The notes below the pieces were generated by a model that saw nothing but the letters and a program-made list of their open reading frames with translations, was not told the origin of the DNA and did not search any database. Positions 2,581-20,303 of a stretch of DNA of 20,443 nucleotides are shown here, one piece after another (the first letter of the stretch is position 1; the number at the start of each line of letters is the position of its first letter). The DNA comes from Elusimicrobiota bacterium (lineage in GTDB: Bacteria; Elusimicrobiota; Elusimicrobia; Elusimicrobiales; UBA9959): the NCBI GenBank assembly GCA_037137395.1, contig JBAXKK010000045.1:1-20443 (forward strand), read 5' to 3'. The translations under genes and the position numbers were made by a program.

Positions 2581-3308
2581 TCAGCCATCAAAAAAACAGC
2601 GGGGCCGTGCTGGCGCAGCCAGGCGCGGCGGTTTTCGTAGTCGGGGAGGACGGATTTAACAATGCTCCAGAATTTAAGGGAATGGTCATGAACCTTTAAA
2701 TGGCAAAGCTCGTGGACAATAACATATTCAATAACTGCCGGCGGCATCATGGCAAGACGCCAGTTAATGCGTATATCACCTTTGCGCGAACAGCTCCCCC
2801 AGCGCTTCTTTTGGTCTACGACAGTAACTCTGCCGGATTTAACGGCCAAAGCGCTGGAATGCTTGCGGACAAAAGCGGCAGTCCGCAGTTCTGTGTGCTT
2901 GGCGTATAAATTGCGTATGGCCTCGGAAGCGGCGGCCTTAAATTCCGCGCCCGTTTGACCATTCAGGGAAAGTTTGAGTCGCCCTGATTCCACTTTACAC
3001 TTCGGAGTTTTCAGGTCAGCAACATGCTGCAACCTAAGCCTCAAGTTGCGGCCTAAGAATTGGAAAGATTCTCCGTTTTTAAATTCTTTGGGCGGATACA
3101 GGATCAAAAGCTGTTCAAAATACTTTTGCTTCTCTACAATCCAGGCAGACCTCTTGCCGACAAACTGCTCAACCGTGCTCTTTGTCACAAACCTGGGCGC
3201 CCGCACCGTTACACTCCCGTCCCGGTTCACACGCAGACAGATACTCTTACTCCCTTTTGAAGAGAGCAGGCTGTAGCTAACACGAGGCTCTGCGACTATA
3301 GCAGTCAT
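2571..3308 (-). CDS. M48/YgjP (DUF45)-family metallopeptidase-like protein
   Basis: 245 aa with KRWGSCS and YVIVHELCH...HDHSLKFW (HExxH); the family is typically found directly after hsdR. Confidence 0.92.
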   Translation of the reverse strand: MTAIVAEPRVSYSLLSSKGSKSICLRVNRDGSVTVRAPRFVTKSTVEQFVGKRSAWIVEKQKYFEQLLILYPPKEFKNGESFQFLGRNLRLRLQHVADLKTPKCKVESGRLKLSLNGQTGAEFKAAASEAIRNLYAKHTELRTAAFVRKHSSALAVKSGRVTVVDQKKRWGSCSRKGDIRINWRLAMMPPAVIEYVIVHELCHLKVHDHSLKFWSIVKSVLPDYENRRAWLRQHGPAVFLMADWQ

Positions 3309-3310
3309 AA

Positions 3311-6300: not shown

Positions 6301-6346
6301 CCGGCTTTTCTGAAAGAGTATCTTCGTTGAATTTAGGTGTGATCAT
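3311..6346 (-). CDS. hsdR: Type I restriction enzyme R subunit
   Basis: 1011 aa. Nuclease motif RPDIVLFVNGIPLAVIECK, Walker A WHWQGSGKS, DEAHR box, FTGTP, LLTGFDAP, LLQAVARTNR. Confidence 0.97.
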   Translation of the reverse strand: MITPKFNEDTLSEKPAIEQLRRMGYEIITGDKLDPQETEECSRVSRRDVILVERLRAKLKELNEDAGEIAIEKAIRQITNIQGTSLMDENREFHKDLVSNISVDQEGATGRRAVTIKFIDFKEPKNNEFLAVSQFWVKGPKFTDRPDIVLFVNGIPLAVIECKSPVARETGVGDAIEQLLRYQREIPALFRTNQILLGANLLGAKYGVIGSDYDSFHEWKAKPEEKLPILTQHPTILEMKALGLLDEKDLPHTPAPQDVTIAALFNKRNFLDIIRNFTVFESGDGKVKKKICRYQQFAAVQKLAARVLTEKDKKGIIWHWQGSGKSLTMLFAALKLRREEAKLKNPYFLVVTDRTDLDKQIAGTFHDCGFPNPVRAESGQDLYKMLSENVGRTIMTTVQKFRTPLDKPLSIADNIIVLTDEAHRTQYGNFAFNLRKALPNAAFFAFTGTPLDKEDRNTYKLFSPSGENYMHRYGIMEAEADGATKPIKYMSRLPSLHLVGGSIDALLAGMFPDKDKKELAKIRKQYASMEVLSGAPQRIERVAMDIVEHYHQAIRPNGLKAMIVAKNRAAADLYKKAMDKLVPPEFSAVVMTTNDREDPEDWKQKYCLSSRDEEIIKERFKDPKDSLSFLIVCDKLLTGFDAPVLQVMYLDQRLIEHSLLQAVARTNRVYPCKNYGLIVDYVGIGSELATALKKFSAEDLAGLFHTDDVERELKQLALHHKLSMKFFAGISFDEEPRTIIQKCLEVLRPPTIRGDFDKAYRDMVKSMDFLMPDLRVEPFLKDFKFLGAIREGAKNLYRDERLKSEDLSAKVEALIHAHIAAEKIEELLKPITITAPDFAQQLEAKGSDKAKAVHLEYALRDTLHSAAAENPAFYGTLQKQLEDVIVANSKERHDDAEFLLSLMQIKEAEDHKDEAAKKLGLAGGKEFAFFGLIDRSEDLPALKKEDRAALAKEVIALIEDRAVAEWDEREDIQKEMRREIKRLLRRKGCDEDKLPALTRELIELAQQWVKR

Positions 6347-7221
6347 ACAAATTTACAGCTCCTGGGCTTTGGGGCTTTTGAAGTTTCAAATCTAAAATCT
6401 GTCAGCAGGAGGTTGGCCTCAACCGCTAAATGCTTACACATCATTTTGATCGTATCCACAGCCTCGTGGTTCTTTGGTATTCCATTAACAATTTCCAATG
6501 CCTTTTCTGCGTCTGGCGCGGAAGCACACTTGAAAACCTCTTGTTGTGTTTTGCTTGTTTTGGCGCCTACGGTGTAACTATCGTATCGGATCCCCTCATC
6601 ATCAAGCCCCATGTGGCGTTTAAATATCACATAGGCTATTCTTTCATAACTGACCCATGGAACTTTGGGAGTAGCCATGGGAGAAAATGCCTCCATTTTT
6701 AATTCGGTTTTTAGAAGTTCTAAAAGTTCGCTTGAGTATTTTAAGGATTCCTGCTGCATATCCGTGAATTTTTTCCGGAATGCCTCCCATCTTGCTAATA
6801 ACTCTGGATAGTGGACCTCTTTTGCGTCTGCGTAGTAACGCTGAAACCCTTCCGGCTCATGCCAGTACTCTGACTGTAGCGGCCTCCCGGTTGGCCGTTC
6901 AGGAATTCTGGCATGTATTACGAACCTAGTCCCGGCATAAGCATCCTCTGTTATATGTCCTGGATTTTTGGTTATATTCTCCTGAGTAACGCCAATTGGT
7001 GTGTCCTGCACCTCGCATATTGGGAAATAGAAAGCCTTAAGATACTCACAAATTGGCATCAGAATTTCTTTTTTAATTACCTTTGCGTGCTCTTCTTTTC
7101 TTTCCCGCTTATGCCGCAAATGTTCTTTAAAAAGATCGCTCGTAAAACCGAGCACCCAACCCCCGACAGCAGCAACCTCTGCAAGCCAGTTGTTTATCAA
7201 GAAATCCATCGCTTTATCCAT
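6343..7221 (-). CDS. Hypothetical protein with a probable single N-terminal membrane anchor
   Basis: 292 aa. Hydrophobic N-terminus (FLINNWLAEVAAVGGWVLGF) followed by basic KEHLRHKRERK. It starts 3 bp after the cyclase stop and its stop overlaps the hsdR ATG (ATGA). Confidence 0.75.
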   Translation of the reverse strand: MDKAMDFLINNWLAEVAAVGGWVLGFTSDLFKEHLRHKRERKEEHAKVIKKEILMPICEYLKAFYFPICEVQDTPIGVTQENITKNPGHITEDAYAGTRFVIHARIPERPTGRPLQSEYWHEPEGFQRYYADAKEVHYPELLARWEAFRKKFTDMQQESLKYSSELLELLKTELKMEAFSPMATPKVPWVSYERIAYVIFKRHMGLDDEGIRYDSYTVGAKTSKTQQEVFKCASAPDAEKALEIVNGIPKNHEAVDTIKMMCKHLAVEANLLLTDFRFETSKAPKPRSCKFV

Positions 7222-7224
7222 AGG

Positions 7225-8178
7225 TCACCCCTGATATTGATATATCGGGTATATTTTGTCTATTGCCAATTTATACCCCCATCCTTCTGGGAGCGGAACC
7301 GGAACGCATTTTAAGCGCCAATTGGTATGCAGGTTCTGCAACATTATTTGTCCGAGATGAATCCCATTAGGTTGGGCAGTTGCCTGTATCTTCGCTGCCA
7401 AGCTAACAACTGCGCCTATAATGTCCTTGTGTTGTTTTGTAGCTGGGCTGCCCACTGTTTGCACGTAGGCTTCACCAGAGTCTAGACCGATCCGTATTTG
7501 GATAACGGGAAAGCCTAACTTAATTAAACATGAGTTAAGTCCGTCATTTATCAAACGCCGCAATGTTAGAGCACAATCCAGGGCATTGTCGTTTTGTATG
7601 ACAAAGCTCGGTTCTGGGAAATAAGCAATAACCCCGTCGCCAGTATACTTTAAGACATGCCCGTGAAACAACGGAACAATAGAACCGATTTCGTAAAACA
7701 TCGCTGATACCAGTTTATTGTACTTTGCCGGCTCTAATTGTGTAATAAGTTTTGTTGATCCAACAACATCGAGAGAAAGAATAGCGAATCCCAGTTTATC
7801 TTTTTCCAGAGTTCGCAGAAATTCCTCCGATTTGTCTTCAAAAGTGACTTCCGGAATACCATTTGAAATATTTTTCTCTATTTCCGGTATTCGCCGCTGG
7901 ACATACTCCTCAGCCTTCCCTACGAGCTGCTGCTTAAAGTGCATAGGCATTCCCTTCATCTGGCTCGCCATTTGCAGGAGAACGCCTTGAGGAATAATGG
8001 TTTTATCCAATTTATCATACCAACACGCTTTGCCATTAATATTTCTATGCTCATATCGCTTAGGATCAGGAATTAATCGAAATTCAATCATTCCAGTGGA
8101 ATCGTCCGATGAAACAACTTCGATTAGAAAGTCCATTCTGGAATGGTTTAGATAATTTTCATCTTCAGCTGACAACAT
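7225..8178 (-). CDS. Class III adenylate/guanylate cyclase domain protein with an unknown N-terminal domain
   Basis: Motifs AILSLDVVGST, VLKYTGDGVIAYF, IRIGLDSGE and DIIGAVVSLAAKIQ. Start placed at ATG 8178 (AAGGGAG RBS, 1 bp after the upstream stop) rather than 8217. Confidence 0.9.
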   Translation of the reverse strand: MLSAEDENYLNHSRMDFLIEVVSSDDSTGMIEFRLIPDPKRYEHRNINGKACWYDKLDKTIIPQGVLLQMASQMKGMPMHFKQQLVGKAEEYVQRRIPEIEKNISNGIPEVTFEDKSEEFLRTLEKDKLGFAILSLDVVGSTKLITQLEPAKYNKLVSAMFYEIGSIVPLFHGHVLKYTGDGVIAYFPEPSFVIQNDNALDCALTLRRLINDGLNSCLIKLGFPVIQIRIGLDSGEAYVQTVGSPATKQHKDIIGAVVSLAAKIQATAQPNGIHLGQIMLQNLHTNWRLKCVPVPLPEGWGYKLAIDKIYPIYQYQG

Positions 8179-8179
8179 T

Positions 8180-9208
8180 TCATCTCCCTTGCAGGACCTT
8201 CTGCCTGTATGGGTCAAAACCAGGATTTGTATCCAAATATTTCTTTAAGTCATTAAAGGCGACTTCAGAGTATCTATTGATTCGTCCCTTTTTTGAGATT
8301 CTAATCGATTGATGATATCGATCGTTACCTTTAAAATTCAGCTTCTTAAAAGAATATGCCACAAAATTCGGATTCTTCCCGATTTTCACCCCAATATCGC
8401 TAGTTAAGTACGGATAGTCTTTTTCCACCTCGGTTTTCTTAATATGAACTGGAAGGCCGGTTTCAGTTGAACTGCCTTTTCTGAGAATTAAGTCTGCGGT
8501 AAAGTTTTTGGGCGCCTGGACAGGGATAATTCTCACCATTTCCGCATTTTGGATAAATTTTCCGATATGCAAGTGCGACATAATTTTGCGTTTATCTTTG
8601 TATTGGCGCTCGAATTTATCTTGTGATATATATTTTAGGCCGTCAAAAGAAACACCTCTCTCAAGCAACCACACTAGTCGCATGTTTTCTTTGCTTTTTT
8701 TCATTCTGCTCACAACCGACTGAACCTTGTCTGCATATGTCGTTAGATTATCGAAAGAAATAGATAAAAAGTTGTCTACGAGAATCTTCCCCTGTTTTGG
8801 GAATTCTTTTAACACCAGGTCTTTGTAGAATTTAGCGCCGAAGTAGAACAGGTGATATAAAATCTCCGTGGGGATAACAGGCAGGAAACTATGTATAGCC
8901 TGATTCCGCAATGAAATTATTTGCTGAATTGAATCTTCCTGGTTTTCATCGATAAACTTTTCTGCGCATAATTTAGACAAAACATGCTCGGCCGACGAGG
9001 TGTTCCCATTTTTATCCTTAATAATGCTATTTCTGCCGTGCTTTTTAACAAGAATAGCTTTCCCTAATAGTTCCCAGCCATTGGTCATTAAAATTAGGCA
9101 TGTTTCTATTTTATACTTGTCATAAACTCTGTTGAATGACGCAATCGATGACCGCGTTGCGTTTAGAGATTTTCCCAGCAAACATAAATACTCGCGCCGA
9201 CCTTTCAT
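8180..9208 (-). CDS. DUF3644-like protein with a HEPN-type RxxxxH motif (putative RNase)
   Basis: 342 aa. LMTNGWELLGKA and LRNQAIH; C-terminal YPY...YH...RYSE region typical of DUF3644 proteins as recalled; AAGGGG RBS; AT-rich. Confidence 0.7.
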   Translation of the reverse strand: MKGRREYLCLLGKSLNATRSSIASFNRVYDKYKIETCLILMTNGWELLGKAILVKKHGRNSIIKDKNGNTSSAEHVLSKLCAEKFIDENQEDSIQQIISLRNQAIHSFLPVIPTEILYHLFYFGAKFYKDLVLKEFPKQGKILVDNFLSISFDNLTTYADKVQSVVSRMKKSKENMRLVWLLERGVSFDGLKYISQDKFERQYKDKRKIMSHLHIGKFIQNAEMVRIIPVQAPKNFTADLILRKGSSTETGLPVHIKKTEVEKDYPYLTSDIGVKIGKNPNFVAYSFKKLNFKGNDRYHQSIRISKKGRINRYSEVAFNDLKKYLDTNPGFDPYRQKVLQGR

Positions 9209-9218
9209 AATTGCCCCT

Positions 9219-10493
9219 TTAATTTACCCTAACTTTCCCGGTCAAAAGCATACTCATTAAACTTTTTTTGAGCTCAACCACCTTCTCGAGTCCTTTTTCT
9301 TCCCTATCAATGACTTTGTCAACTTCTTGCGAAATTGCCGCAATTTTCTTCTGCTCAGGAAGCGAAGGAAGTGGGATAGGCATAAAAGACACCTGCTGAG
9401 CGTTCAGGTGTGGTTGAGCAGAACGGGCACTTTGACTTGAGAAATACGCTTGGGCATTTTCTGAAAGAAGATATTCCACACAATACGCAGGAGATATTCT
9501 CGATGAAGGCGAGATGACTAGATCATATCCGGCAACCGCTCCGGCCCATATTTTTGTTACGAGTGCAACATCACCCGTATTCACACCGCTTCTCACCACA
9601 ATAATATCTCCTTCTTCCAAAAAAGGTTTGCGATTAAGTGGAAGTGTTTCACGGTTAACCCTCAGGATATCGTTCTCGACAATCTTATTGCCTTTAATAT
9701 TTGTGGCGCGAATCATCAATACACCGTTCGGGTCGGCAACTGGTGGCTGCCCAAGTCCGTAGCGAACATATACTAACTCACCCAGCCTCGACTCCCTCCA
9801 ATCCACTGGAATTTTCCCTATTTTGGTTTTCTTGAATTTTTTATGACCGATGCCGTGGGTGAGAAGCTGGCACATCAGGCTTTTTTTTAGTTCTTTGGTT
9901 TTTTCAATTTCAGCGTCAACGTTATCAATTAATATGTCTACATCAGATAATATCCGGCCAATATTTTCCTGCTCCTGTGCCGTCGGGACTGGCATTTGAT
10001 ATTCGGCCACATCGCTAGAATTGACAGCAGGGTAGCTTGATCCTGTCATCTTCTCTTCCAGGTATTTCACAAAGGTATCGCTTAATACGTGCTGATACAC
10101 ATAACCGCCATTCACATTTGGCCGAGCGCGAAGCACCGCAAAACCAGTGGAAGCGACAATATTTTCTGACAAGTCGGTAATCCGGGCAAAAGCTTTAAGA
10201 TATGGACGGACTGTAGAAACTATTATATCTCCGGCTTTAACAATTCGCCTGGCACGCGAAGGTGCATCTTTAAATTTCATATCCTTGGGAATCGAAATAC
10301 TCCCGGTGCGTTCTATTGAGGCAATATCAATATATTTCAATTGCGCGTCAGGCGGCGTAGATTCTTTAATTACTTCCGGATTAACCTGGCACAAATCAGA
10401 GATAGTAGCCACGCCCCAATCTACAGGGATTTCTCCGGCGGGTGTCTTTTTCAGCTTCTGCCCCATCTTCAGGCTGCCTATCTGGTTACTCAT
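9219..10493 (-). CDS. hsdS: Type I RM specificity subunit S
   Basis: 424 aa. Two TRDs with duplicated conserved regions (KKTPAGEIPVDW / KKTKIGKIPVDW, PTAQEQENI / PSLPEQKKI, ELKKSLM..LLT twice). Confidence 0.96.
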   Translation of the reverse strand: MSNQIGSLKMGQKLKKTPAGEIPVDWGVATISDLCQVNPEVIKESTPPDAQLKYIDIASIERTGSISIPKDMKFKDAPSRARRIVKAGDIIVSTVRPYLKAFARITDLSENIVASTGFAVLRARPNVNGGYVYQHVLSDTFVKYLEEKMTGSSYPAVNSSDVAEYQMPVPTAQEQENIGRILSDVDILIDNVDAEIEKTKELKKSLMCQLLTHGIGHKKFKKTKIGKIPVDWRESRLGELVYVRYGLGQPPVADPNGVLMIRATNIKGNKIVENDILRVNRETLPLNRKPFLEEGDIIVVRSGVNTGDVALVTKIWAGAVAGYDLVISPSSRISPAYCVEYLLSENAQAYFSSQSARSAQPHLNAQQVSFMPIPLPSLPEQKKIAAISQEVDKVIDREEKGLEKVVELKKSLMSMLLTGKVRVN

Positions 10494-11541
10494 GGGAGTC
10501 TCCTAAGATCTTTTCAAGGAAGGCCAAAGACATTTTCTGGTGCTGTTCAGACTGCAGGCCAGGCGGGGGCGGGGTGCCCACATCAAAACCGGCGCGGGAA
10601 AACTCAGTAGCCACCAGCTCCAGGCTGTCCTGCAGACGGGAACTCTTCATATACTGCGAGGCATCACTTTCTGCCAACTCATCCATAGTCTGCCAAAGGT
10701 TTGAGAGCGCGGCATAAATAGCCGCCCAGTCTAGCCACTTGGGCCGGGCTTCATCAACCGCCGCCGGCGATACAAACTCCCACCATTTCCTGTGGGAAAG
10801 CCAATAATCCACTTTCTTGCCTTTGCGCCTTATAAGCACAAGGCCGGACTTGGACAAGTCCAAAAGCGTCTGGTGAACGCCCAGCCAGAAAAGGCCAATA
10901 GCGTCTGCTATCTCTTTAGGCCGCGCGCCTTCATGGGTAAGCAGATAAAGAATAATCTCGGACTTACCACCCACACCAAAAAGCGAACGCAGCAGAAAGC
11001 GTAAGTTGGCCTTGGCATTTATAGGTGTTTCTTTACCGGCCTTCTGTATTTTAAGGATCGGTCTGTTGAAACCGAATTTAAGAAAAGCCGGGTCAGCCTT
11101 CTCTTTTGAGGTTCCAGGATGGGCGCGGCCGGTTTTATCTTTGAACAAAGCTTCTTCAGCCCTTGCGGAATTTTTCGGACTAAGCTTATCGCAAAGGTTC
11201 ACCAGGTTCTGCCATTTGCGCGAATCCCCGCCGTTATCCAGCAGATGCTGCAGAACGCCGCCCATAAGCCTTGCGGTATTGGTTCCGCGGGCCTCTATAA
11301 TGTTCCTGAGTCTTGGGGTGTCCAGCAACTGGCCGTTCACTTTAAGCCAGGCCAGAATTTCGTCAAACAGGCGGGGCTCATAGCGGCCGATTTCAAGGGA
11401 AAACACCAGCAAAGACTCCGGGTCTATAACCCAGTCCTCTTCGCCGCCAGACTCTCCCAGCAAACCCAAAGCGGACCATTGCCGCCAGAGAAATGTCAGG
11501 AGGCGGTTAAGCAGTTGTTCTCTATATTCTTTCAGCGACAT
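10486..11541 (-). CDS. Protein with an internal winged-HTH (ArsR/MarR-like); probable partner of the upstream nucleotidyltransferase
   Basis: 351 aa. SEIILYLLTHEGARPKEIADAIGLFWLGVHQTLLDLSKSGLVLIRRKGKKVDYWL is wHTH-like; overlaps both neighbouring genes. Confidence 0.7.
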   Translation of the reverse strand: MSLKEYREQLLNRLLTFLWRQWSALGLLGESGGEEDWVIDPESLLVFSLEIGRYEPRLFDEILAWLKVNGQLLDTPRLRNIIEARGTNTARLMGGVLQHLLDNGGDSRKWQNLVNLCDKLSPKNSARAEEALFKDKTGRAHPGTSKEKADPAFLKFGFNRPILKIQKAGKETPINAKANLRFLLRSLFGVGGKSEIILYLLTHEGARPKEIADAIGLFWLGVHQTLLDLSKSGLVLIRRKGKKVDYWLSHRKWWEFVSPAAVDEARPKWLDWAAIYAALSNLWQTMDELAESDASQYMKSSRLQDSLELVATEFSRAGFDVGTPPPPGLQSEQHQKMSLAFLEKILGDSHE

Positions 11542-12112
11542 CGTTATGCCCCATTCCTGTTAGTATTCTTTTAAGTTCGCCCTTGTAGCCTTCGGAAACA
11601 TCATGCGTCATGCTCCACTTGGCGGCGGCAAACAGTTCTTCCGCAGTGGGCTTAAGTTCGAGTAAGTCCGCGTAATGCTTGCCGCCCTGATCAACCGCGG
11701 CGTACAGTTTGAAGTGAATCTGGTCGTAGCGACTGAAAAAGCGCACGGTAAGAAGCGGCCCGTAATGGGCAACCTCGGCCCTTACGAGCACCCCTTCTGG
11801 CAAACCCAAATCCAGCGCGGAAGCTGGGCCGGGGTTGAACCAGTCCTCTTTAAGGCCAAAGTCCCTGGCAACCTTTTCTACGGCCCCGGCGAGGGCAGCA
11901 GGAAAAGGGTCAGGCCTGCTCATAACACCAGCCTCTCCCGCGATCCTAGCCACAACGTCAACGTCCATGGTGGTGCGGGTGACCAAGTGCAAAGCGTGAA
12001 GAGCTGAGCCGCCGCAGACCAGCAGGTCCAGCCTTTCGCTGCTTGTGGCAGCAAGCTGGTCGCCCAATGCGGACAATATCCGGTCTATTTCATCTTTGTT
12101 TTTAAAAGGCAT
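11522..12112 (-). CDS. Nucleotidyltransferase, DUF6036/AbiEii-like (Pol-beta superfamily)
   Basis: 196 aa. VCGGSAL...RTTMDVD (GG-S/A plus DxD) and C-terminal KLYA...KHYADL. Confidence 0.85.
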   Translation of the reverse strand: MPFKNKDEIDRILSALGDQLAATSSERLDLLVCGGSALHALHLVTRTTMDVDVVARIAGEAGVMSRPDPFPAALAGAVEKVARDFGLKEDWFNPGPASALDLGLPEGVLVRAEVAHYGPLLTVRFFSRYDQIHFKLYAAVDQGGKHYADLLELKPTAEELFAAAKWSMTHDVSEGYKGELKRILTGMGHNDVAERI

Positions 12113-12114
12113 AG

Positions 12115-13599
12115 TTAGATTTTATAGCCGAGTTCTTTCAGATAGCCTTCAACTTTAGCTTCGGCGGCCTGGCGCTCTTTTTTTAGTTTGGCCAGGTCGT
12201 TTATTACGGTCTGAACATCTATCACTTCCTCTTCCTCAGCTATATCGATATAGCGCGGGATGTTCAGGTTATAGTCATTGCGGCGAATCTCATCTAGGCC
12301 GACCTGCCGAGAGTATTTTTCAATATTGGAAGTTGAACGATAGGCGTTGATTATCTTGTCGATGTCTTCCTGCCGCAGTCTGTTCTTGTTTTTAAGCTGC
12401 GCGAAGTCCCTCGCGCCGTAAATAAAGAACACTTTACCCTTCCTGTCTGCGGGCTTGTTCTTGTTTATTATGAACAGGGCGGCGGGAATGCTTGCACCGT
12501 AAAACAGGTTCTGCGGCAGACCGATAACGGCCTCCACAAGGTCCTCTTCCAATATCCCCTGGCGAATACGGCCCTCGGCGCCGCCGCGGAACAGCACGCC
12601 ATGTGGCAGAACTATACCGGCCCGGCCGGAAGGCTTAAGCGTGGCGATCATGTGCTGAACAAAAGCATAATCGCCGTAACTCTGGGGCGGAACACCGTAG
12701 CGAAACCGGCCAAAGCCGTCGTTTTCAGCCGACTCTATCCCCCAGTTCTTCAGCGAAAAGGGCGGATTGGCGATAACAATGTCGTATTCAATAAGTTTGC
12801 CCTTATTAAGAAGCTTGGGGTCTCTTATGGTATCACCTTTTTCTATGCGCGCGCCGGAAATGCCATGCAAAAGCATATTCATCTTGCAGATAGCCCAGGT
12901 GCCGATGTTACGCTCCTGGCCGTGCAGGACGATATTCCTGGGATTTTGCTTTATGGATTTAAGATGATGCACGGCCTGCACCAGCATGCCGCCGGAACCG
13001 CAGGCCGGGTCGCATACATACATACCGGCCTTGGGGTCCAGGATTTCCGTAAGCAGGGTGACGACTTCCTTTGGCGTGTAGAATTCCCCGCCTTTTTTAC
13101 CGGCATCGTCGGCGAACTGGGCGATAAGGTACTCGTAGGCCCGGCCAAGAATATCCGGCTCGGCCAGATTGTCATTGCGGAGGCTGAGCCCGGAAAAATG
13201 GAGAATAAGCCTGGAAAGAGTTTCATCCGACAGGCGCTCTTTATCGTTAAAGTCCGTAGCGGAAAGAACATCCTCAAGCACCCGGTTTTCCTCTTCAAGA
13301 ATATCGTTGGCCTTGTTTATGGCGTCGCCCAGGTTGTGGGTGAGGGATGCCAGGTGTTTCCAATTAGCCTTGGTGGTAACAAAGAACTCATGCTCGTCCG
13401 GATCCTCGTAAGCTATTTTCTTATTGCCGGTTTCCTTTATGATCTTTTCGGCTTCTTCCTCAAAGACATCGGAGATACGCTTAAGGAATAGCAGGCCAAA
13501 AATATAATTCTTGTAGTCTGAGGAGTCTATGCTGCCGCGCAGTATATTGGCGGATTCCCATAGATGGGCTGTAAGCTTTTCAAGATCTAGTTTTTCCAT
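12115..13599 (-). CDS. hsdM: Type I RM N6-adenine methyltransferase M subunit
   Basis: 494 aa. LWESANILRG N-terminus, GEFYTP, DPACGSGG (SAM binding), NPPF catalytic motif, YNLNIPRY. Confidence 0.97.
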   Translation of the reverse strand: MEKLDLEKLTAHLWESANILRGSIDSSDYKNYIFGLLFLKRISDVFEEEAEKIIKETGNKKIAYEDPDEHEFFVTTKANWKHLASLTHNLGDAINKANDILEEENRVLEDVLSATDFNDKERLSDETLSRLILHFSGLSLRNDNLAEPDILGRAYEYLIAQFADDAGKKGGEFYTPKEVVTLLTEILDPKAGMYVCDPACGSGGMLVQAVHHLKSIKQNPRNIVLHGQERNIGTWAICKMNMLLHGISGARIEKGDTIRDPKLLNKGKLIEYDIVIANPPFSLKNWGIESAENDGFGRFRYGVPPQSYGDYAFVQHMIATLKPSGRAGIVLPHGVLFRGGAEGRIRQGILEEDLVEAVIGLPQNLFYGASIPAALFIINKNKPADRKGKVFFIYGARDFAQLKNKNRLRQEDIDKIINAYRSTSNIEKYSRQVGLDEIRRNDYNLNIPRYIDIAEEEEVIDVQTVINDLAKLKKERQAAEAKVEGYLKELGYKI

Positions 13600-13640: not shown

Positions 13641-13669
13641 AGCATAGCAGATGTATTTGATTATGTCAA
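13641..13669 (-). promoter_or_regulatory. Sigma-70 promoter for the hsdM operon
   Basis: Minus strand reads TTGACA-N17-TATGCT with TG at the extended -10 position, about 40 bp upstream of the hsdM ATG in an AT-rich intergenic region. Confidence 0.8.
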
Positions 13670-13849: not shown

Positions 13850-14065
13850 TCAGCAATCTATCCACCCATGTCGCTCCCCAACATCGCCATCACGCTGCCG
13901 GGGGTTTGTGTAGCCCTGCGCCGCCATCACGGACTTAACGGTCTTCTCCAGCGCCGCCTTGTTGGCGGTCGCTAGGCGGAAGATCTCGGGCATTATAGAC
14001 TTCTTTATTGTCGCACCCAAAACGATTATCTCTTTGCTCACGGCGGCTTCGTTTTTGCTTTTCAT
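13850..14065 (-). CDS. Small hypothetical protein (71 aa, MKSKNEAAVSKEII...)
   Basis: ATG at 14065 with a strong AGGAGGAGG RBS, directly downstream of the palindrome/-10 promoter at 14093..14128. Confidence 0.65.
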   Translation of the reverse strand: MKSKNEAAVSKEIIVLGATIKKSIMPEIFRLATANKAALEKTVKSVMAAQGYTNPRQRDGDVGERHGWIDC

Positions 14066-14092: not shown

Positions 14093-14128
14093 ATAGTATA
14101 CACCGCCAACCCGACAGCGTCTTGTCGC
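14093..14128 (-). promoter_or_regulatory. Putative WYL-activated promoter, copy A
   Basis: Minus strand: GCGACA-AGACGC-TGTCGG-GTTGGCGGTG-TATACTAT. Confidence 0.8.
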
Positions 14129-14473
14129 TTTGAAATATTTTTTTGGGGCCCAAAAAGGCCATAAGGACGGCGGCTTGGATGCCGGGAGGGGCAAGCTTTT
14201 TTAGTGTTCTGCCATGATGCCGTTTTAGGGGTTACACAAAGGTGTCTTGGTGCGTACTTTCAAAACTGTACCGGAACTGACCAGCCCGACCCGGAGCTCA
14301 TGGCCGGAGTTTGGCACAAAAGCGGATGGACTGGATCCGAGGGGCTGAGGAAATATAGAGGCGTTTGGGCATGTGATGGATGGACAACCAGCTTGGCCTT
14401 AAGCAAGCCGCATTGCGTCTAAACCCGGACTCCGGTACCAGGCTTAACCAGAAACTGATGCTTAAAATCCTGA

Positions 14474-14959
14474 TCAGTTTCCCCCCGCCCGGGCCATATG
14501 CCCATCGCGACAGAGGAACCTTGCCGGCAAGGTCTTCTGGCGGATCTTAACCGGGAGATTGGACCGGGATGGGATATGGCGGGCCTCATCAAACGAAACC
14601 CCGGACCGACTTTCGCGCTTAAGGTGGTCAAGGGCCAGGCCGTCTATTCGCTTCCAGACATACGATATAAATCTTACGGGCCTTAACACCCCGCCCCGGT
14701 CCCGGTAGTTCAGATCGTATGTTCGGATTTTCTGATACAAGGTCAGGATGGCGGCCGACAACAGGTCGTCGCCATGGCGTTCCAGGTGCCACCTGAAGAC
14801 TTTCGTCCGCAGGCACCACATAAGAAAGCCTATATGGCGCAGCACAAGTTCGTCCCTGGCGGTTTTCCTGCCGGCCTGAGCCGTTGCGATCATGCGCCGT
14901 TCCTGCGCAAGTGAAAGTTTAGGATAGCGCCGGGCCACTTCAAGGTAACCCTCCCACAT
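14474..14959 (-). CDS. Sigma-70-like protein with regions 1.2 and 2 only (no region 4)
   Basis: 161 aa. YLEVARRYPKLSLAQE (region 1.2), ARDELVLRHIGFL (2.1), DDLLSAAILTLYQKIRTYD (2.2), RFISYVWKRI (2.3), then VSFDE and a short tail without an HTH. Confidence 0.75.
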   Translation of the reverse strand: MWEGYLEVARRYPKLSLAQERRMIATAQAGRKTARDELVLRHIGFLMWCLRTKVFRWHLERHGDDLLSAAILTLYQKIRTYDLNYRDRGGVLRPVRFISYVWKRIDGLALDHLKRESRSGVSFDEARHIPSRSNLPVKIRQKTLPARFLCRDGHMARAGGN

Positions 14960-15167
14960 CGTTAAATGATAGCTAAAATGAAACCGGCGGACCCTGCCTG
15001 CCGGCGGGCCAGGATCAAAAAAGCGGTCGATTCAGGCCCTTTTCGGCAACTGAACTGCTGTTAGTGCCAGTCCAAAGGTGTACCGGCCGGGGTGTTGCTT
15101 TGACGGAATGCTGGTTTGCTCTGGAATACGCAGACAAGGTCAACCACGAAAGCTGAATGCAGGCTTT

Positions 15168-15176
15168 TGTTATAAT
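15168..15176 (+). promoter_or_regulatory. Extended -10 element upstream of the WYL gene
   Basis: TGTTATAAT matches TGnTATAAT, about 80 bp upstream of ATG 15255. Confidence 0.5.
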
Positions 15177-15254
15177 ACCTCTATGAGCGGAGCTGCTGAG
15201 TTGACGGCTCCCAATTATGCTATCTATAAATAGTTGCTACTTCCCAGGGGTAAT

Positions 15255-16268
15255 ATGTCATCAAAGAAAAACACCGAACATAAAAAAGATTTTAAAAAAC
15301 TCGCCATCCGAACTGGCAAAAGCTCCACAAAAAGAAGCGATGGGGACAGGCAACATTATAGAGTCGGCAAGATTCTGAACCGTTTGGAAGATGGTCCCAT
15401 ACATCTTAAATCCTTGGCTGGTGAATATCGCGTAACAAAACGCTCTATTGAAAGAGATTTAGATAAGATAGAGTTATACGGCTATGGCATTATAATCCCG
15501 AAAACAGGTTGGAGACAATTCGCCCCCGGCGTAAGCCTTAAAAAGGGCAAGTTAGACATACAGCAGCAGGCCGCCCTCGTCATTCTTCACGAAATATCCC
15601 GGAACCTGGGCGCTTCAATGCATAAATCATTTGGGACCATATTCAAACACCTGATGGAATGCGACCCTGGGGAATCCAACATAATCCCCATAATGCCCAA
15701 GCTCATCAACACTAAAGACATCCCCTATATAGATAGAATAGATGCCGCCATAGAAAACCGCAGGAAACTTAAAATTGAATACGATTCCGAGGCCAAGGGC
15801 CAAATAGTCAGCCGCCTTATCTGCCCGGTTAAAATACTGATTTCCGAAGGCTTCGCCTATATTCTGGCCATCTCAGAAAACCGGCATGGCAGCCCCATAA
15901 AGTACCGTCTGGACAGGATTAAAGCACTGGAAGACACCCCAGATACATTTACCTACCCTGAGAACCTTTCGGAACTGCTTGAAAAAGCCCGCAGCGTCTG
16001 GGGAATCTTGCCTGAAAAAGAACGCAAAACCCTCGTGCGACTGAAAGTAGAACAATGGGCCGTGGACTACTTCAAACACCAGGAACTGATAGGCGGCCAA
16101 AAAACCAAGGGTGAACTAGACGGTTCGCTCCTTTTTGAAGCGAAAGTCGGCCAGTTAATGGAAATCATACCCCATATACTGCACTGGATACCCTATGTGA
16201 CAGTGCTTGCGCCAAAAGAATTAAAAGATGAAATCCGGGCCAACATACATGAATACCTGAAGAAGTAA
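15255..16268 (+). CDS. wHTH-WYL-WCX transcriptional regulator (PafB/PafC/DriD-like architecture)
   Basis: N-terminal HTH (LAGEYRVTKRSIERDLDKI), WYL domain (AIENRRKLKIEY...ICPVKI...FAYIL...YRLDRI) and WCX tail (ILHWIPYVTVLAPKELKDEI). ATG 15255 with AGGGG RBS is preferred over TTG 15234. Confidence 0.93.
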   Translation: MSSKKNTEHKKDFKKLAIRTGKSSTKRSDGDRQHYRVGKILNRLEDGPIHLKSLAGEYRVTKRSIERDLDKIELYGYGIIIPKTGWRQFAPGVSLKKGKLDIQQQAALVILHEISRNLGASMHKSFGTIFKHLMECDPGESNIIPIMPKLINTKDIPYIDRIDAAIENRRKLKIEYDSEAKGQIVSRLICPVKILISEGFAYILAISENRHGSPIKYRLDRIKALEDTPDTFTYPENLSELLEKARSVWGILPEKERKTLVRLKVEQWAVDYFKHQELIGGQKTKGELDGSLLFEAKVGQLMEIIPHILHWIPYVTVLAPKELKDEIRANIHEYLKK

Positions 16269-16319
16269 TCTCTCCGACAGACACCAGTTTCACTCTGCAA
16301 CAATCTCCCTGTGCATCAA

Positions 16320-16359
16320 GACCGCGACACAATGCTGTCGCGGTCGCTTCTTACACTAT
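16320..16359 (+). promoter_or_regulatory. Putative WYL-activated promoter, copy B
   Basis: GACCGCGACA-CAATGC-TGTCGCGGTC (10-bp arms); TGTCGC-N10-TACACTAT; then AAGGGG RBS and ATG 16381. Confidence 0.85.
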
Positions 16360-16380
16360 ACATATACATAAGGGGATATT

Positions 16381-17598
16381 ATGAGCAACAGCGCGCATTT
16401 TGACAACCAAATAAAACTTTTCAGGAAAGAGTTCCCACCGGCCGATGGCTGGCAGATATATAAAAATGAGAGTTCCTTTTTGTTTAACATTCCGGACCTG
16501 CTGGAAACCGCTCCGGAATCTATAAAGCATTCAGAAATAACGCAGAACGTATCACATGAATCTTCGTATTCTGAAGATAAAGAGACCCCCACCATCACAA
16601 TAAAAAAACTCCGCTGGCTCGGCACCTACCACCTTGTGTGGAACAACGAGTCTATAACGGTACGATCACTCTATTACGAGGATCGTGGTCAATACCCCTA
16701 TTTTCTTATAGCTGTAAAGAATTTTAATGCCTTGAGCAATTTTTACGACGCTATTATTAAACTGGATCTTAAAAAAGGGAAACAGCGCACAAAAATAGTT
16801 GTTCAGACTGTGACCGGCATGAATATTCCCCTGTCGAATGTTTCCTGGAACAATGTAATACTGCCTCCGGCCATGGCGGAAGACTTAAAAGCCGGTGTTG
16901 AAACCTTCTTTCAGGCCAGGGAGATGTACAAGCAATTTGATCTTCCATACAAGCGCGGCTTTATTTTTTCGGGGCCGGCCGGCTGCGGCAAAACGCTTAC
17001 GGCAAAAACAATTCTAGCAACCATGCGCCTGCCGTCATTTCTGCTTACCCCCTCTCCCAGCCAGGATAGGACCGCAAACTGCATACACTGGGCTTTTGAC
17101 GCGGCCGCGAGGCATGCGCCGGCCATTCTTCTTATTGAGGAGCTTGAGAAATTCTCCGACCCGGCCTATATCTCAATGGTTTTAAACCTTATGGACGGCC
17201 TAAGCACGATGAAGGGCGTGCTGGCGATTGCCACCACTAACCACCCTGAAAAAATAGACCCAGCCTTACTACTGCGTCCCAGCCGGTTCGACCGTGTGTG
17301 GAACTTCCCTCTGCCGGATTTAGACTGCCGCCTGCGCCTGCTAAAGAAAAAAGCCAAAGGCTACGTTAATGACCTCGTATTGGAGGAGGTTGCCAGGCAA
17401 TCGTCAGGGTTTTCCATGGCATATGTGCAGGAGATCTTTGCCTCTGCGATTTCCCTGGCGCTCCGGGACGGGCGGGAAGTTTCGGATAATGACTTGCTTA
17501 AAAGCGTTGAATTACTGAAAAAGCAGATAAAATCCGCCCCCGCCACAGCCGCCGAGGTGGGCACAGCCGCTCAATGCCTCGGTTTTGTACAGGAATAA
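16381..17598 (+). CDS. AAA+ ATPase (classical AAA clade, BCS1/FtsH-like ATPase domain) with an unknown N-terminal domain
   Basis: 405 aa. LPYKRGFIFSGPAGCGKT (Walker A), LLIEELE (Walker B variant), TTNHPEKIDPALLLRPSRFD (second region of homology). No protease domain or TM segment seen. Confidence 0.92.
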   Translation: MSNSAHFDNQIKLFRKEFPPADGWQIYKNESSFLFNIPDLLETAPESIKHSEITQNVSHESSYSEDKETPTITIKKLRWLGTYHLVWNNESITVRSLYYEDRGQYPYFLIAVKNFNALSNFYDAIIKLDLKKGKQRTKIVVQTVTGMNIPLSNVSWNNVILPPAMAEDLKAGVETFFQAREMYKQFDLPYKRGFIFSGPAGCGKTLTAKTILATMRLPSFLLTPSPSQDRTANCIHWAFDAAARHAPAILLIEELEKFSDPAYISMVLNLMDGLSTMKGVLAIATTNHPEKIDPALLLRPSRFDRVWNFPLPDLDCRLRLLKKKAKGYVNDLVLEEVARQSSGFSMAYVQEIFASAISLALRDGREVSDNDLLKSVELLKKQIKSAPATAAEVGTAAQCLGFVQE

Positions 17599-17651
17599 AG
17601 GATACTAATTTGTATACTTCAGCAAGGCAGATAAAACGGGAGGGATCCATT

Positions 17652-17897
17652 ATGGGAATCAAAGCTTGTTTATGCGGGTCATGCGGTTTCGGCAATAAAG
17701 CCGACGAGTGCGTTAAGTGCGGCCAACCTTTTGCAAAAATCCCGGCGCAACTTTGCGGAAATTGCGGCTTCGGCAACAAAGAAACGGAATGCGTGAAATG
17801 CGGCCAGCCTTTTGCCAGCACACAGGCGTTTTTATGTGACAATTGCGGTTTTGGCAATAAGGCAAACGAATGTATCAAATGCGGCAATCCGGTGTAA
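17652..17897 (+). CDS. 81-aa Cys-rich protein with three 27-aa repeats AxLCxxCGFGNKxxECxKCGxP (PHF5/Rds3-like or double zinc ribbon)
   Basis: ATG 17652 with GGGAGG RBS; six CxxC motifs; the 81-nt repeats differ largely at synonymous or variable codon positions, supporting a real gene. Confidence 0.85.
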   Translation: MGIKACLCGSCGFGNKADECVKCGQPFAKIPAQLCGNCGFGNKETECVKCGQPFASTQAFLCDNCGFGNKANECIKCGNPV

Positions 17898-17939
17898 GAT
17901 GTATAGGGTGACAAGAGCCTTTTATTGCAGGGAGAACCC

Positions 17940-18572
17940 ATGAAAGAAATTGATGAAAAAATAAAGGAGCTTGAGGAAGCAGCATTGGAAATTACAACCA
18001 CGAGAAACAGTATTATAAATCAGCTTATTAAACAATGGGAAACAAATCCAGACTCTGTTGATGAACTATTTTACAAGCTTCTTTCAGCCGAGTGGAAGTT
18101 GTCAGCTAACGGAACGGCATATGGAACACAACTTGAAAAATATCTTATTGACATTTTTCAAGGGGTTCTAAAAGGGAAACCATATAACATTGAGAAGCAT
18201 CAAAAGATTAGAGATCACAAAGTGGAAGATATTGTTATTACCGGCAAAAACTCTTCTCCGGTGAAGGTAGTTGTGGAAGTGAAATCATTTATCGAAAACA
18301 GCACTAGCTCACACAGCATACGGCTTTTAGAAAAAGCAAAAAAAGACATTGAAGACAAAACTGACATGAAATATAAATATTTTGTTTTTGCCAGTTCACA
18401 TTCTGGCAACCCATCGTTTGAGTCTTGGAAACCCAACAAAGACTGGATTTTTCTACAATCACACTATTTAAGTAAGACGGAATCCGGACGGATTTGGCTT
18501 GAGAAGGGTTTTGAGAGTTATTATCCGCTGAGAAGACTTATCAAAAGTATAGAAGAAGTTTTTGTGATTTGA
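17940..18572 (+). CDS. Putative PD-(D/E)XK restriction-endonuclease-fold nuclease with an N-terminal coiled coil
   Basis: GTQLE...VEDIVI...VVVEVKS motif order; ATG 17940 with AGGGAG RBS; AT-rich. Confidence 0.6.
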   Translation: MKEIDEKIKELEEAALEITTTRNSIINQLIKQWETNPDSVDELFYKLLSAEWKLSANGTAYGTQLEKYLIDIFQGVLKGKPYNIEKHQKIRDHKVEDIVITGKNSSPVKVVVEVKSFIENSTSSHSIRLLEKAKKDIEDKTDMKYKYFVFASSHSGNPSFESWKPNKDWIFLQSHYLSKTESGRIWLEKGFESYYPLRRLIKSIEEVFVI

Positions 18573-18654
18573 TTGCTACTCTTTTCCATTTCCGGCTTAT
18601 AAGACCTATTCTTTATCAACAATCCGGCGACATAATACTCATCTCCCTGGAAAC

Positions 18655-18694
18655 CACCGCGACACAATGCTGTCGCGGTGCCCCTGTATACTAT
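18655..18694 (+). promoter_or_regulatory. Putative WYL-activated promoter, copy C
   Basis: CACCGCGACA-CAATGC-TGTCGCGGTG; the 24-bp core is identical to 16321..16344; TGTCGC-N10-TATACTAT; ATG follows 6 nt after the -10 hexamer. Confidence 0.85.
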
Positions 18695-18698
18695 TATC

Positions 18699-19607
18699 AT
18701 GAAAATGTTCAAAAAACCAGAAATACTTTGCCGTGAGTGGATGGAAAGCACAATGAAAAAGTTTAATGGCTACTCCACACTGGATATCCCGCTGGGGTTC
18801 GAGTTTTATCCCGACACCCACTTCGGCTGCGGAGAGGTTTCCCTGATTTCCTCACGGCCAAGCCAGGGCAAAACGGCTTTTATCACATCGGTTCTTAATA
18901 ATCTGATAACTTCCGGCAAATATAACGCTGCGGTTTTTTTGCCGGACATGCCCACTGCTGAGTTTTTCTCAAGGCTTGTGGCAAGCCGGGCCGGTGTGGA
19001 TTACGGGAAAGTTAAGCGGGGCTTCATTACCAGGGACGATTGGATGCTGCTTCACAAAACCATGACGCGCCTTTCCAAAGCTAGGCTTTGGATTTCCGCT
19101 TCTAAGCGGTCCTCAACCGCTTCTGTGCGGGCGGAGGCCTTAAAATTAGCGCATGAACTGAAGCTACAAAAGAAAAAGCTGGACGTTGTTTTTATAGATT
19201 CGATTAATTCTCTGTCAGATTTTCCCGAGCGGCGCGAAGATAAAACCAACATACTGCGCGCCTTAAACCGCCTGGCAGAAGACACCGGCGCCGCTATTGT
19301 CTGCGCGTACAGCCTTGAAGATTTTCGGCAGGATGATCCCGCAGTTAGAGTGCGTCCTCAACTGCGCGATTTCCGTACTTGTGGCATATGTGAAGATGAG
19401 ATCGGCCTTATTATCAACATAGTCCGCCCCGAAGTTCATCAAACAACAAGTCTTAAACACGTAAACGTGGGAGACCTGGATATAGTGTGGAGCAGTTCGC
19501 GCGCCTACGGATATTCTGTCCCAGCCAGATTTGACCCGAAAACACTAATATTTTACACTGGAAAACCACGGGTCTGTAAGCAGGGGAAAAGCGTGCAAGC
19601 TCCATGA
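18699..19607 (+). CDS. DnaB-like helicase C-terminal (RecA-fold) domain protein, degenerate, lacking the N-terminal domain
   Basis: ISSRPSQGKTAF (H1), VFLPDM (H1a), VFIDSI (H2), RPQLRDFRTCGICEDE (H4-like). The start codon is uncertain (18699, 18705, 18741 or 18753). Confidence 0.8.
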   Translation: MKMFKKPEILCREWMESTMKKFNGYSTLDIPLGFEFYPDTHFGCGEVSLISSRPSQGKTAFITSVLNNLITSGKYNAAVFLPDMPTAEFFSRLVASRAGVDYGKVKRGFITRDDWMLLHKTMTRLSKARLWISASKRSSTASVRAEALKLAHELKLQKKKLDVVFIDSINSLSDFPERREDKTNILRALNRLAEDTGAAIVCAYSLEDFRQDDPAVRVRPQLRDFRTCGICEDEIGLIINIVRPEVHQTTSLKHVNVGDLDIVWSSSRAYGYSVPARFDPKTLIFYTGKPRVCKQGKSVQAP

Positions 19608-19691: not shown

Positions 19692-20303
19692 TTATTTGGT
19701 TGTAATTGTCTTAATTAACCTTTCCACATCTCCGGGCTTATCCAATGAAAGAATGGCGACATGATCTCTAAATTGCGGTTCATTTGCCAACTTGCTGAGT
19801 GAGTCTTGGCAAAAAAATGTGACGATATAAAACTTTTCATATTCCCCTTTCGCCAGCATTGCTTCAAAAAAAGCTTCTCCGAAACTATTATTAGTAAGAT
19901 AGGCTTTGAACTCAATAAAAATCGGTTTATCCGTTCCATTAGCGATGACAAAATCAATTCTCTTTTTAATTTCAAACCTCTTCAGATACTCCAGTGCGCA
20001 TGGTTGCTCAGAATGAACCTTGTTCTTATGTGTGTCTAAGCTCTTTAGTGCGGTGGAAAACGCCCTGGGGATCATGTTTTTATCGCCAGGACTTAAATGT
20101 TTCTCTCTACACCTTTTAATGTCGTTATCCAATGCATTGACAAAAGTTTCAAAGAACCTTGTCGCATCTGTGGCATCAGCGCCAGGTTTTGGCCTGAAAT
20201 ATCTTCGGTATGCAGAAATACCGCACTCTGGTTTTTCTAATCGACAATTTTCATTATCAATACACTTCCCATCACGCAAGAGTGTGTCCCAATTTTCTTC
20301 CAT
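19692..20303 (-). CDS. Putative PD-(D/E)XK nuclease-fold protein
   Basis: 203 aa. SEQP...RIDFVI...IFIEFKA motif; GGGGGA RBS; AT-rich. Confidence 0.6.
   Translation of the reverse strand: MEENWDTLLRDGKCIDNENCRLEKPECGISAYRRYFRPKPGADATDATRFFETFVNALDNDIKRCREKHLSPGDKNMIPRAFSTALKSLDTHKNKVHSEQPCALEYLKRFEIKKRIDFVIANGTDKPIFIEFKAYLTNNSFGEAFFEAMLAKGEYEKFYIVTFFCQDSLSKLANEPQFRDHVAILSLDKPGDVERLIKTITTK

Follow-up and report, generated by a model that had tools for sequence, protein, structure and literature searches.

The DNA considered here is a stretch of 20,443 nt from an Elusimicrobiota bacterium (assembly GCA_037137395.1, contig JBAXKK010000045.1), in the following called the window. It contains three copies of the palindrome CGACA-N6-TGTCG, each at a fixed distance from a -10 hexamer, together with a gene for a WYL domain protein. 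With good confidence, judged from the sequences, these three palindromes belong to a genome-wide box of 35 copies that is likely bound by a WYL activator of the DriD/DdaA type, predicted to sense single-stranded DNA (ssDNA) and to activate recA, radC and a number of accessory and defence genes. The window is contig C45 of genome G000, an assembly of 2.70 Mb with 98.9% completeness and 7.7% contamination; G-, C- and L-numbers denote genomes, contigs and loci, f- and g-numbers families and genera of the comparison set.

A palindromic box at a fixed distance from the -10 hexamer

The three boxes are located as follows.

Box A, 14095..14127, minus strand: palindrome at 14112-14127, then 11 bp and the -10 hexamer TATACT (14100-14095); matrix score 42.7 bits.
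Box B, 16325..16357, plus strand: palindrome at 16325-16340, then 11 bp and the -10 hexamer TACACT (16352-16357).
Box C, 18660..18692, plus strand: palindrome at 18660-18675, then 11 bp and the -10 hexamer TATACT (18687-18692).

An earlier note on this DNA had reported the three exact palindromes at these positions, each followed on one strand only by TGTCG(C/G)-N10-TAYACTAT, and a 24-bp core common to B and C. All of this is correct: box A reads on the minus strand, B and C read on the plus strand, and the identical 24-mer lies at 16321-16344 and 18656-18679. The same note had also claimed a covariation of the flanking base pair, which does not hold, as copy A has C at both 14111 and 14128 and is not palindromic there; only B and C have G..C. 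In the whole genome the first flanking pair is complementary in 17 out of 31 full matches compared to 15.0 in shuffles (30% of the shuffles reach 17), which is not significant. At other loci it is complementary in 81 out of 125 matches compared to 48.6, with related sequences among them that are not independent of each other.

One would expect 0.31 matches to CGACA-N6-TGTCG with at most one mismatch in the window. Four are found (three exact ones and one with a single mismatch), a number reached by none of 100 shuffles. The gene start follows the -10 hexamer after 29 nt at box A, 23 nt at box B and 6 nt at box C. A scan of the window for sigma-70 promoters and terminators gave nine promoters (8.2 expected) and eight terminators (7.3 expected) and picked up none of the three box promoters; an Rfam scan of the window yielded no match.

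In the complete assembly the exact palindrome occurs 35 times, compared to about two expected occurrences, and 32 of these copies are located on contigs other than C45. Each of the 14 other spacers tested between 0 and 14 gives 0–7 copies in G000. TAnnnT is found at exactly N11 in 30 of the 35 palindromes (31 of 70 orientations) and, at other loci, in 118 of 246 orientations. Overlap within TATACTAT accounts for minor peaks at N13 and N16. The proposal that the boxes are promoter elements at a fixed distance to a -10 hexamer is supported. A matrix scan of G000 is bimodal, with 31 sites above 36 bits and then a gap down to 24, and the reversed genome has no site above 18. The spacer bases ACG, which might be taken as one half of a -35 element, are conserved in 27, 23 and 27 of 31 sites in G000 versus 69, 79 and 73 of 109 elsewhere, with genome-specific variants. 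TTGACA with up to two mismatches stands at 17 bp in only two of the 31 box promoters, although TTGACA-N17-TAnnnT is the commonest spacing in this genome (47 occurrences versus 11–33 at other spacings).

Among 147 distinct box promoters, 45 have an ATG 6 nt past the -10 hexamer (13 at offset 0, at most nine at any other offset); eight of these 45 ATGs open at least 80 codons, and many of the sites are homologous to each other. This peak fits a transcription start at that position and, for the DnaB-like gene of the window, whose ATG lies 6 nt past the hexamer of box C, a predicted leaderless mRNA. Furthermore, seven boxes are bidirectional, with a -10 hexamer at N11 on both flanks, as a symmetric dimer would allow. 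A dispersed repeat or the end of a mobile element, with no regulatory role, might also account for a sequence of which many copies precede mobile or accessory genes. The probability of this is negligible, however, as the box is kept at recA and radC orthologues across genera while spacer and flanks vary, and as it is strictly coupled to the -10 hexamer and to the ATG peak behind it.

The genes behind boxes in G000 that can be named by Pfam are recA, recQ, radC, comM, ORF6N proteins, four DUF1016/YhcG nucleases, three IS200-like transposases, toxin-antitoxin genes, a HindVP-type endonuclease, DUF2779 and DUF3800 genes, an ABC transporter and a second copy of zapA on contig C128. This list does not agree with the self-contained regulon that the earlier note had seen in the window. 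Self-containment is undercut also by a core WYL gene on another contig, which could equally serve the boxes.

Contig C128 (L174), 4.3 kb long, carries three boxes: two divergent ones ahead of the ABC transporter and a DUF2779 gene, and a third ahead of the second zapA. DUF2779-like genes recur on many islands with a WYL gene. We considered zapA as a core target and rejected it: only the second copy on C128 is boxed, and none of the zapA genes in five relatives has a box. The top-scoring box of G000 (L192, C5) has no obvious downstream gene on the same strand; a 2dG-II purine riboswitch (RF03165, 76.6 bits) is found nearby at L192:3354-3424.

The WYL protein and its known relatives

15255..16268, plus strand: regulator of 337 amino acids (aa) with winged helix-turn-helix (wHTH), WYL and WCX domains; PF13280 and PF25583 above cut-off; island paralogue of the core WYL gene.

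The suggestion of a WYL protein as regulator of the boxes is supported, such a protein being the best candidate. When the single window sequence was searched against the PDB, DriD was the only protein found (five sequences); with the family profile, DriD aligns over positions 9-308, and PafBC and others are retrieved as well. In a fold search with the structural model of the window protein (mean pLDDT 81), DriD occupies ranks 1–6 and PafBC rank 7. The model shows the class A domain order wHTH-WYL-WCX, in which the linker is a bundle of helices (102-116 and 120-134), the same layout as in DriD of Caulobacter crescentus (PDB 8TP8, 9PFQ). R63, E66 and R67 align with R37, E40 and R41 in the base-reading helix 3 of DriD, by which, according to an excerpt of PMC10853764, DriD reads CGAC. 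Both arginines are invariant in 74 out of 74 WYL sequences, and the position of E66 is Glu in 11 and Gln in 63 of them. The ssDNA pocket is conserved in part: as read from the alignment, Y176, R187, Y202 and R218 match Y168, R178, Y192 and R207 of DriD, while W206 of DriD aligns to Y217, R204 to I215 and Y240 to L252; W249, near the last of these, is kept in 72 of the 74 sequences.

The promoters resemble those of DriD as well. According to an excerpt of PMC13004042, CGAC half-sites lie over the -35 position in DriD promoters, at one fixed distance from the -10 element and with no consensus -35, which is the same here. A DriD promoter fragment printed in the same paper reads TGTCG-N11-CAATCT, where the assignment of the -10 element is ours. 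The DriD operator is CGAC-N7-GTCG, in contrast to CGAC-N8-GTCG here (35 copies versus two at the DriD/DdaA spacing), where the centre is not AT-rich; and DriD serves a handful of promoters and works beside LexA, compared to about 30 promoters in G000.

The closest functional match, judged by analogy, is the regulon of DdaA. In the portions of PMC12392091 and PMC13010146 available to us, DdaA of Moraxellaceae/Acinetobacter is described as a WYL activator that acts on CGWCA-N5-TGWCG at recA, CRISPR-Cas and restriction genes and has replaced the SOS response. These portions also indicate that its lineage has lost LexA and that the first of two ssDNA-binding arginines is replaced, as it is in the window protein. 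There are differences. The spacer is N5 in Moraxellaceae and N6 in the different phylum studied here, where the N5 promoter form of the operator occurred in none of five genomes; uvrA is unboxed in the relatives of G000, no ssb, gyr or ruv gene is among the top sites of G000, and island paralogues coexist with a core WYL gene, unlike the situation for DdaA.

The earlier note had favoured another mechanism, in which the adjacent WYL protein drives a self-contained island regulon by sigma adaptation as in PafBC, with one helix-turn-helix (HTH) on TGTCG and the other on region 4 of sigma. PafBC is, following an excerpt of PMC8635444, a heterodimer at the non-palindromic site tGTCgg(N10)tA(N3)T, whose second HTH holds sigma region 4 and reads no bases. 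The proximal half-site and its distance to the -10 element are indeed equal, the GGGT extension is better conserved proximally, the RxxxR recognition helix and a large regulon containing recA are shared, and the boxes do cluster on the WYL island in G041 and in family f2. However, there is a single WYL gene at each locus, with no pafB-pafC pair or fusion and no such pair in the window, the site is a full palindrome, and 32 further copies including the one at recA lie elsewhere in the genome. Without the distal half-site there is no enrichment, as TGTCG-N11-TAnnnT by itself occurs 90 times in comparison to 27–94 times at other spacings. Since the 11-bp distance is found in a DriD promoter too, these activators have this geometry in common, and it is the mode of DriD that the palindrome suggests. 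Single gene, palindrome, the conserved RxxER helix and the best structural matches thus point to DriD/DdaA, and sigma adaptation of the PafBC type appears highly improbable.

Alternatively, the WYL protein might be a repressor like BrxR or CapW that blocks the -35 region until ssDNA releases it. The box does cover the -35 position, the window is a defence island in which the WYL gene lies with restriction-modification genes, WYL repressors are known to control defence islands (as far as the excerpt of PMC13004042 goes), and boxes persist in genomes with no WYL match as if these promoters worked without the protein. On the other hand, the distance to the -10 hexamer is invariant, the genome's preferred TTGACA-N17 is nearly missing from the box promoters, and BrxR and CapW give weaker sequence and fold matches, ranking below DriD and PafBC. 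No box was found before the window's own WYL gene in the matrix scan, but several island WYL genes of relatives do have a box before them. We consider a repressor very unlikely, and a WYL activator of the DriD/DdaA type remains the most likely regulator on the basis of these alignments.

For such an activator the following mechanism may be proposed. ssDNA arising from DNA damage or phage replication would bind to the WYL domains, and the dimer would set one HTH on each CGACA half-site via R63/E66/R67, at about -39 to -24. It could then stabilise the housekeeping RNA polymerase on the box promoters, as DriD does. The window would represent an island with its own WYL paralogue and three boxes, and every box would probably be recognised by the island protein as well as by the core one (C19). 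In most lineages the factor would be a local regulator of islands, and in family f1 a global regulator of recA.

Occurrence of box and regulator among relatives

Three WYL genes are present in G000, on C45 (the window), C19 and C149, each as a single gene at its locus. The window protein is 41–42% identical to the copies on C19 and C149, 55–57% to those of genus g3 and 68–69% to those of L098 and L099, two loci in which the gene order WYL-box-AAA is kept. Close orthologues of the WYL gene on C19 are found within its genus, and its surroundings are common across the family, with tuf-tRNA-Thr-tRNA-Gly on one side and rlmB-pfk on the other (gene names by reading of the sequences). The copy on C149 is 81% identical to it, and both contigs start at the same tRNA-Gly end, which is likely due to strain mixture or contamination. 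In many genomes a box, followed by a conserved gene of 90–99 aa with no Pfam family, is located immediately past the core WYL locus (L003:1325-1624, L106, L107, L108, L113, L121); this gene is a candidate core effector.

Box and WYL gene occur together. Among 33 relatives with at least 90% completeness, a WYL gene was found in 24 out of 24 genomes with the box and in two out of nine without it. In 80 further genomes, picked to include box-bearing and box-free ones, the numbers are 23 out of 33 versus nine out of 47, where related genomes are not independent. Within 606 kb around 61 WYL loci there are 67 N6 palindromes versus 0–2 for other spacers, and the majority of boxes in families f2 and f3 form clusters close to the WYL gene. 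Four genomes carry the labels of other phyla; in these, ten out of ten box matches are on the contig with the WYL gene, although misbinning is possible. In the 15 genomes that belong to other orders of the class, box and WYL gene are both lacking. Summarizing, outside recA and radC of one family the box mostly clusters around a WYL gene on islands. Our tree of WYL proteins contains sequences from Elusimicrobiales only, with long branches and no outgroup, and we claim neither a donor nor an order of events.

The 33-bp box pattern was detected in 30 out of 41 genomes of the order, with one control match in total, and in 47 out of 151 genomes of the phylum. A search of 30 genomes, 29 of them with a full recA, placed the box at recA in 15 out of 20 f1 genomes and in none out of nine from f2 and f3. 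At radC it is found in 13 out of 17 genomes when the best copy per genome is taken; three of 20 genomes lacked a full close copy and were left out, and one of the 17 had only 41 bp upstream. Genomes G057 and G059 have no WYL match, yet both contain a conserved box upstream of a 115-aa gene and an rmuC-like gene, where a leaderless start is predicted (L211, L216; names by reading). A viral collection contained 15 stretches that match the box pattern, roughly estimated at or below chance, with no WYL relative confirmed; these were not used as evidence.

No match to LexA (PF01726) or S24 peptidase (PF00717) was found in G000, which at 98.9% completeness does not prove their absence. Among 40 relatives LexA is above cut-off in three, and weaker LexA-like matches occur in 11 out of 14 f2 genomes. 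In 12 of the 15 f1 genomes with a recA box, LexA matches are absent or marginal. A replacement of SOS by the box regulon is therefore plausible but not clean.

Several observations weigh against a DriD/DdaA-type activator with these tasks. Its identity to DriD is only about 19–20%, and the ssDNA-binding residues R204 and Y240 of DriD are not conserved (I215 and L252 in the window protein). The tetranucleotide profile of C45 is the third most atypical of 64 large contigs, in an assembly with 7.7% contamination. Three f1 genomes have LexA-like genes together with the recA box (G004, G009, G016), and three others have neither recA box nor LexA match (G011, G014, G015). comM is boxed in only six out of 20 genomes and recQ in only one out of four, and uvrA has no box in any of the 11 genomes with a uvrA match; thus the regulon is not a full equivalent of SOS. 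Finally, ten of the 33 box-bearing genomes in the set of 80 have no WYL match. Five of these were rechecked at E<=0.01 and still showed none, two of them being rated 100% complete, with 2–4 box matches.

The latter result would fit if some other factor, an alternative sigma or a different dimeric regulator, read the box and WYL genes were just frequent targets or neighbours; a sigma-like open reading frame (ORF) is indeed present in the window. But the half-site is the one read by DriD and DdaA with the same residues, box and WYL gene have moved together into the genomes that carry labels of other phyla, and both are missing together from the other orders. Moreover, the sigma-like ORF was matched in only one out of 19 relatives searched. 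Several WYL matches of family f13 have internal stops, which would fit a decay of the regulator that leaves orphan boxes. We therefore assign only a very small probability to another factor and retain the WYL protein as the likely reader of the box in what follows.

Genes of the window and of related islands

The remaining features around the boxes are the following.

13641..13669, minus strand: promoter-like site TTGACA-N17-TATGCT before hsdM, a consensus match only, in contrast to the box promoters.
13850..14065, minus strand: 71-aa gene, assigned to no known family; has a GGAGG site and is flanked by box A and the type I restriction-modification genes.
14474..14959, minus strand: sigma-70 region 2-like ORF of 161 aa, probably a fragment; PF04542 with E 0.0012, below cut-off; unboxed; 93% identical to an ORF of G001.
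16381..17598, plus strand: YjoB-like single-domain AAA+ ATPase of 405 aa; PF00004; Walker A intact, Walker B with EE instead of DE.
17652..17897, plus strand: 81-aa protein with three 27-aa CxxC repeats (PHF5/zinc-ribbon-like), encoded by an 81-bp DNA repeat; PF03660, PF13248; 19 homologues.
17940..18572, plus strand: 210-aa protein, predicted nuclease with PD-(D/E)XK fold; Atlas structure neighbours mostly PDDEXK clusters, TM about 0.5.
18699..19607, plus strand: 302-aa protein consisting of the DnaB C-terminal domain only, predicted to be catalytically dead; PF03796; 28% identical to the host DnaB (C43).

Conservation of the box upstream of homologous genes in other genomes, which the earlier note had named as a check, is found for the AAA, the DnaB-like and the 71-aa genes. 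The AAA ATPase has 189 homologues at E<=1e-60, and a box immediately precedes its gene in L098, L099 and G001 and in one case in G026; the same is true of four out of four close homologues of the DnaB-like gene in relatives. The 71-aa protein has no match in Pfam, PADLOC, NCBIfam or PHROG, and its first 54–55 aa match three relatives at 67–73% (29 aa only in G004). Its homologues precede hsdM in G001 and, together with a box, a type I-C cas3-cas5-cas8 operon in G004, where at L190 (G004:C12) the box and a broken copy lie directly upstream. Box A faces the type I restriction-modification genes; a canonical promoter-like site of their own is present before these.

Among the 60 PDB matches listed for the AAA ATPase, YjoB (7w42) covers most of the query (residues 61-358); the N-terminal part has no usable Atlas match. 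An assignment to Iet or CBASS systems was rejected, as the PADLOC matches (IetA, TRIP13) are confined to the ATPase core and the IteA model of NCBIfam scores far below cut-off. The predicted nuclease has no family match at cut-off. The trio of ATPase, Cys-rich and nuclease genes recurs in G019 with a shortened ATPase, 91% identity of the Cys protein and 66% of the nuclease, and with no box seen. As the three modules occur apart elsewhere, they are cassettes rather than one fixed system. The DnaB-like protein has kept Walker A, and what we take to be the catalytic Glu, the sensor Gln and the KxR (arginine) finger are replaced.

Similar proteins are found on boxed WYL islands of relatives (L082 (G001:C70), L083, L084, L086, L090), which hold truncated or extra copies of DnaA, DnaE, DnaB, RuvB, FtsA and ClpX-like proteins. 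The island DnaA is reduced to its ATPase, the RuvB-like protein is short, and ClpX-like ATPases are also present. Two DnaE fragments end near the same point, each lacking an aspartate that is presumably catalytic. The extra FtsA and ZapA copies are 52–56% identical to the core proteins of G000. These dead copies of oligomeric machines could be decoys or checkpoints, or else decaying cargo. It is possible, if rather doubtful, that in Elusimicrobia mobile WYL islands triggered by ssDNA use the dead or truncated DnaB, DnaE, DnaA, RuvB, FtsA, ZapA and ClpX-like proteins as decoys which, by a dominant-negative effect, stall the replication of host or phage. The same factor might then have become domesticated at the tuf-tRNA locus and have taken over control of recA from LexA in one family, a path from local defence to global damage regulation.

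Positions 1267 to 13599 of the window comprise a type I restriction-modification island, composed of hsdM, hsdS, hsdR and a gene for an M48-like peptidase. Other genes are inserted into it: a nucleotidyltransferase-like gene paired with an HTH gene, one for a DUF3644/HEPN protein (PADLOC PDC-S19), and one for a PycC-like nucleotide cyclase, next to which lies a 292-aa gene. The cyclase (7225-8217) matches Pycsar PycC over its C-terminal half only and the 292-aa gene (6343-7221) has a hydrophobic start and no family match; together they are a possible atypical Pycsar-like pair. At 19692-20303 on the minus strand, a 203-aa ORF converges on the DnaB-like gene; it has no family match and possibly carries a PD-(D/E)XK-like motif.

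In the literature searched (WYL and LexA/SOS motifs in Elusimicrobia, these half-sites in connection with WYL, transfer of WYL islands, truncated DnaB in defence islands) no account of this regulon was found. The term "Elusimicrob" does not occur in the main text of PMC12392091, PMC13010146 and PMC6789036 as far as it was available, and the WYL tree of the DdaA paper may include such proteins. If our reading is true, a further DNA-damage regulon that is driven by an activator independently of LexA would exist, in a phylum for which the literature searched holds no damage regulator. Its operator is one base longer than that of DriD and DdaA and keeps the proximal geometry shared with PafBC, and would thus test how such dimers set their half-site spacing and contact RNA polymerase. 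As island-only and genome-wide forms of the box are present within one order, comparisons could test how global WYL regulons originate. The box itself would then be a precise tag for genes of unknown function that damage or phage induces, among them the degenerate copies of the replisome.

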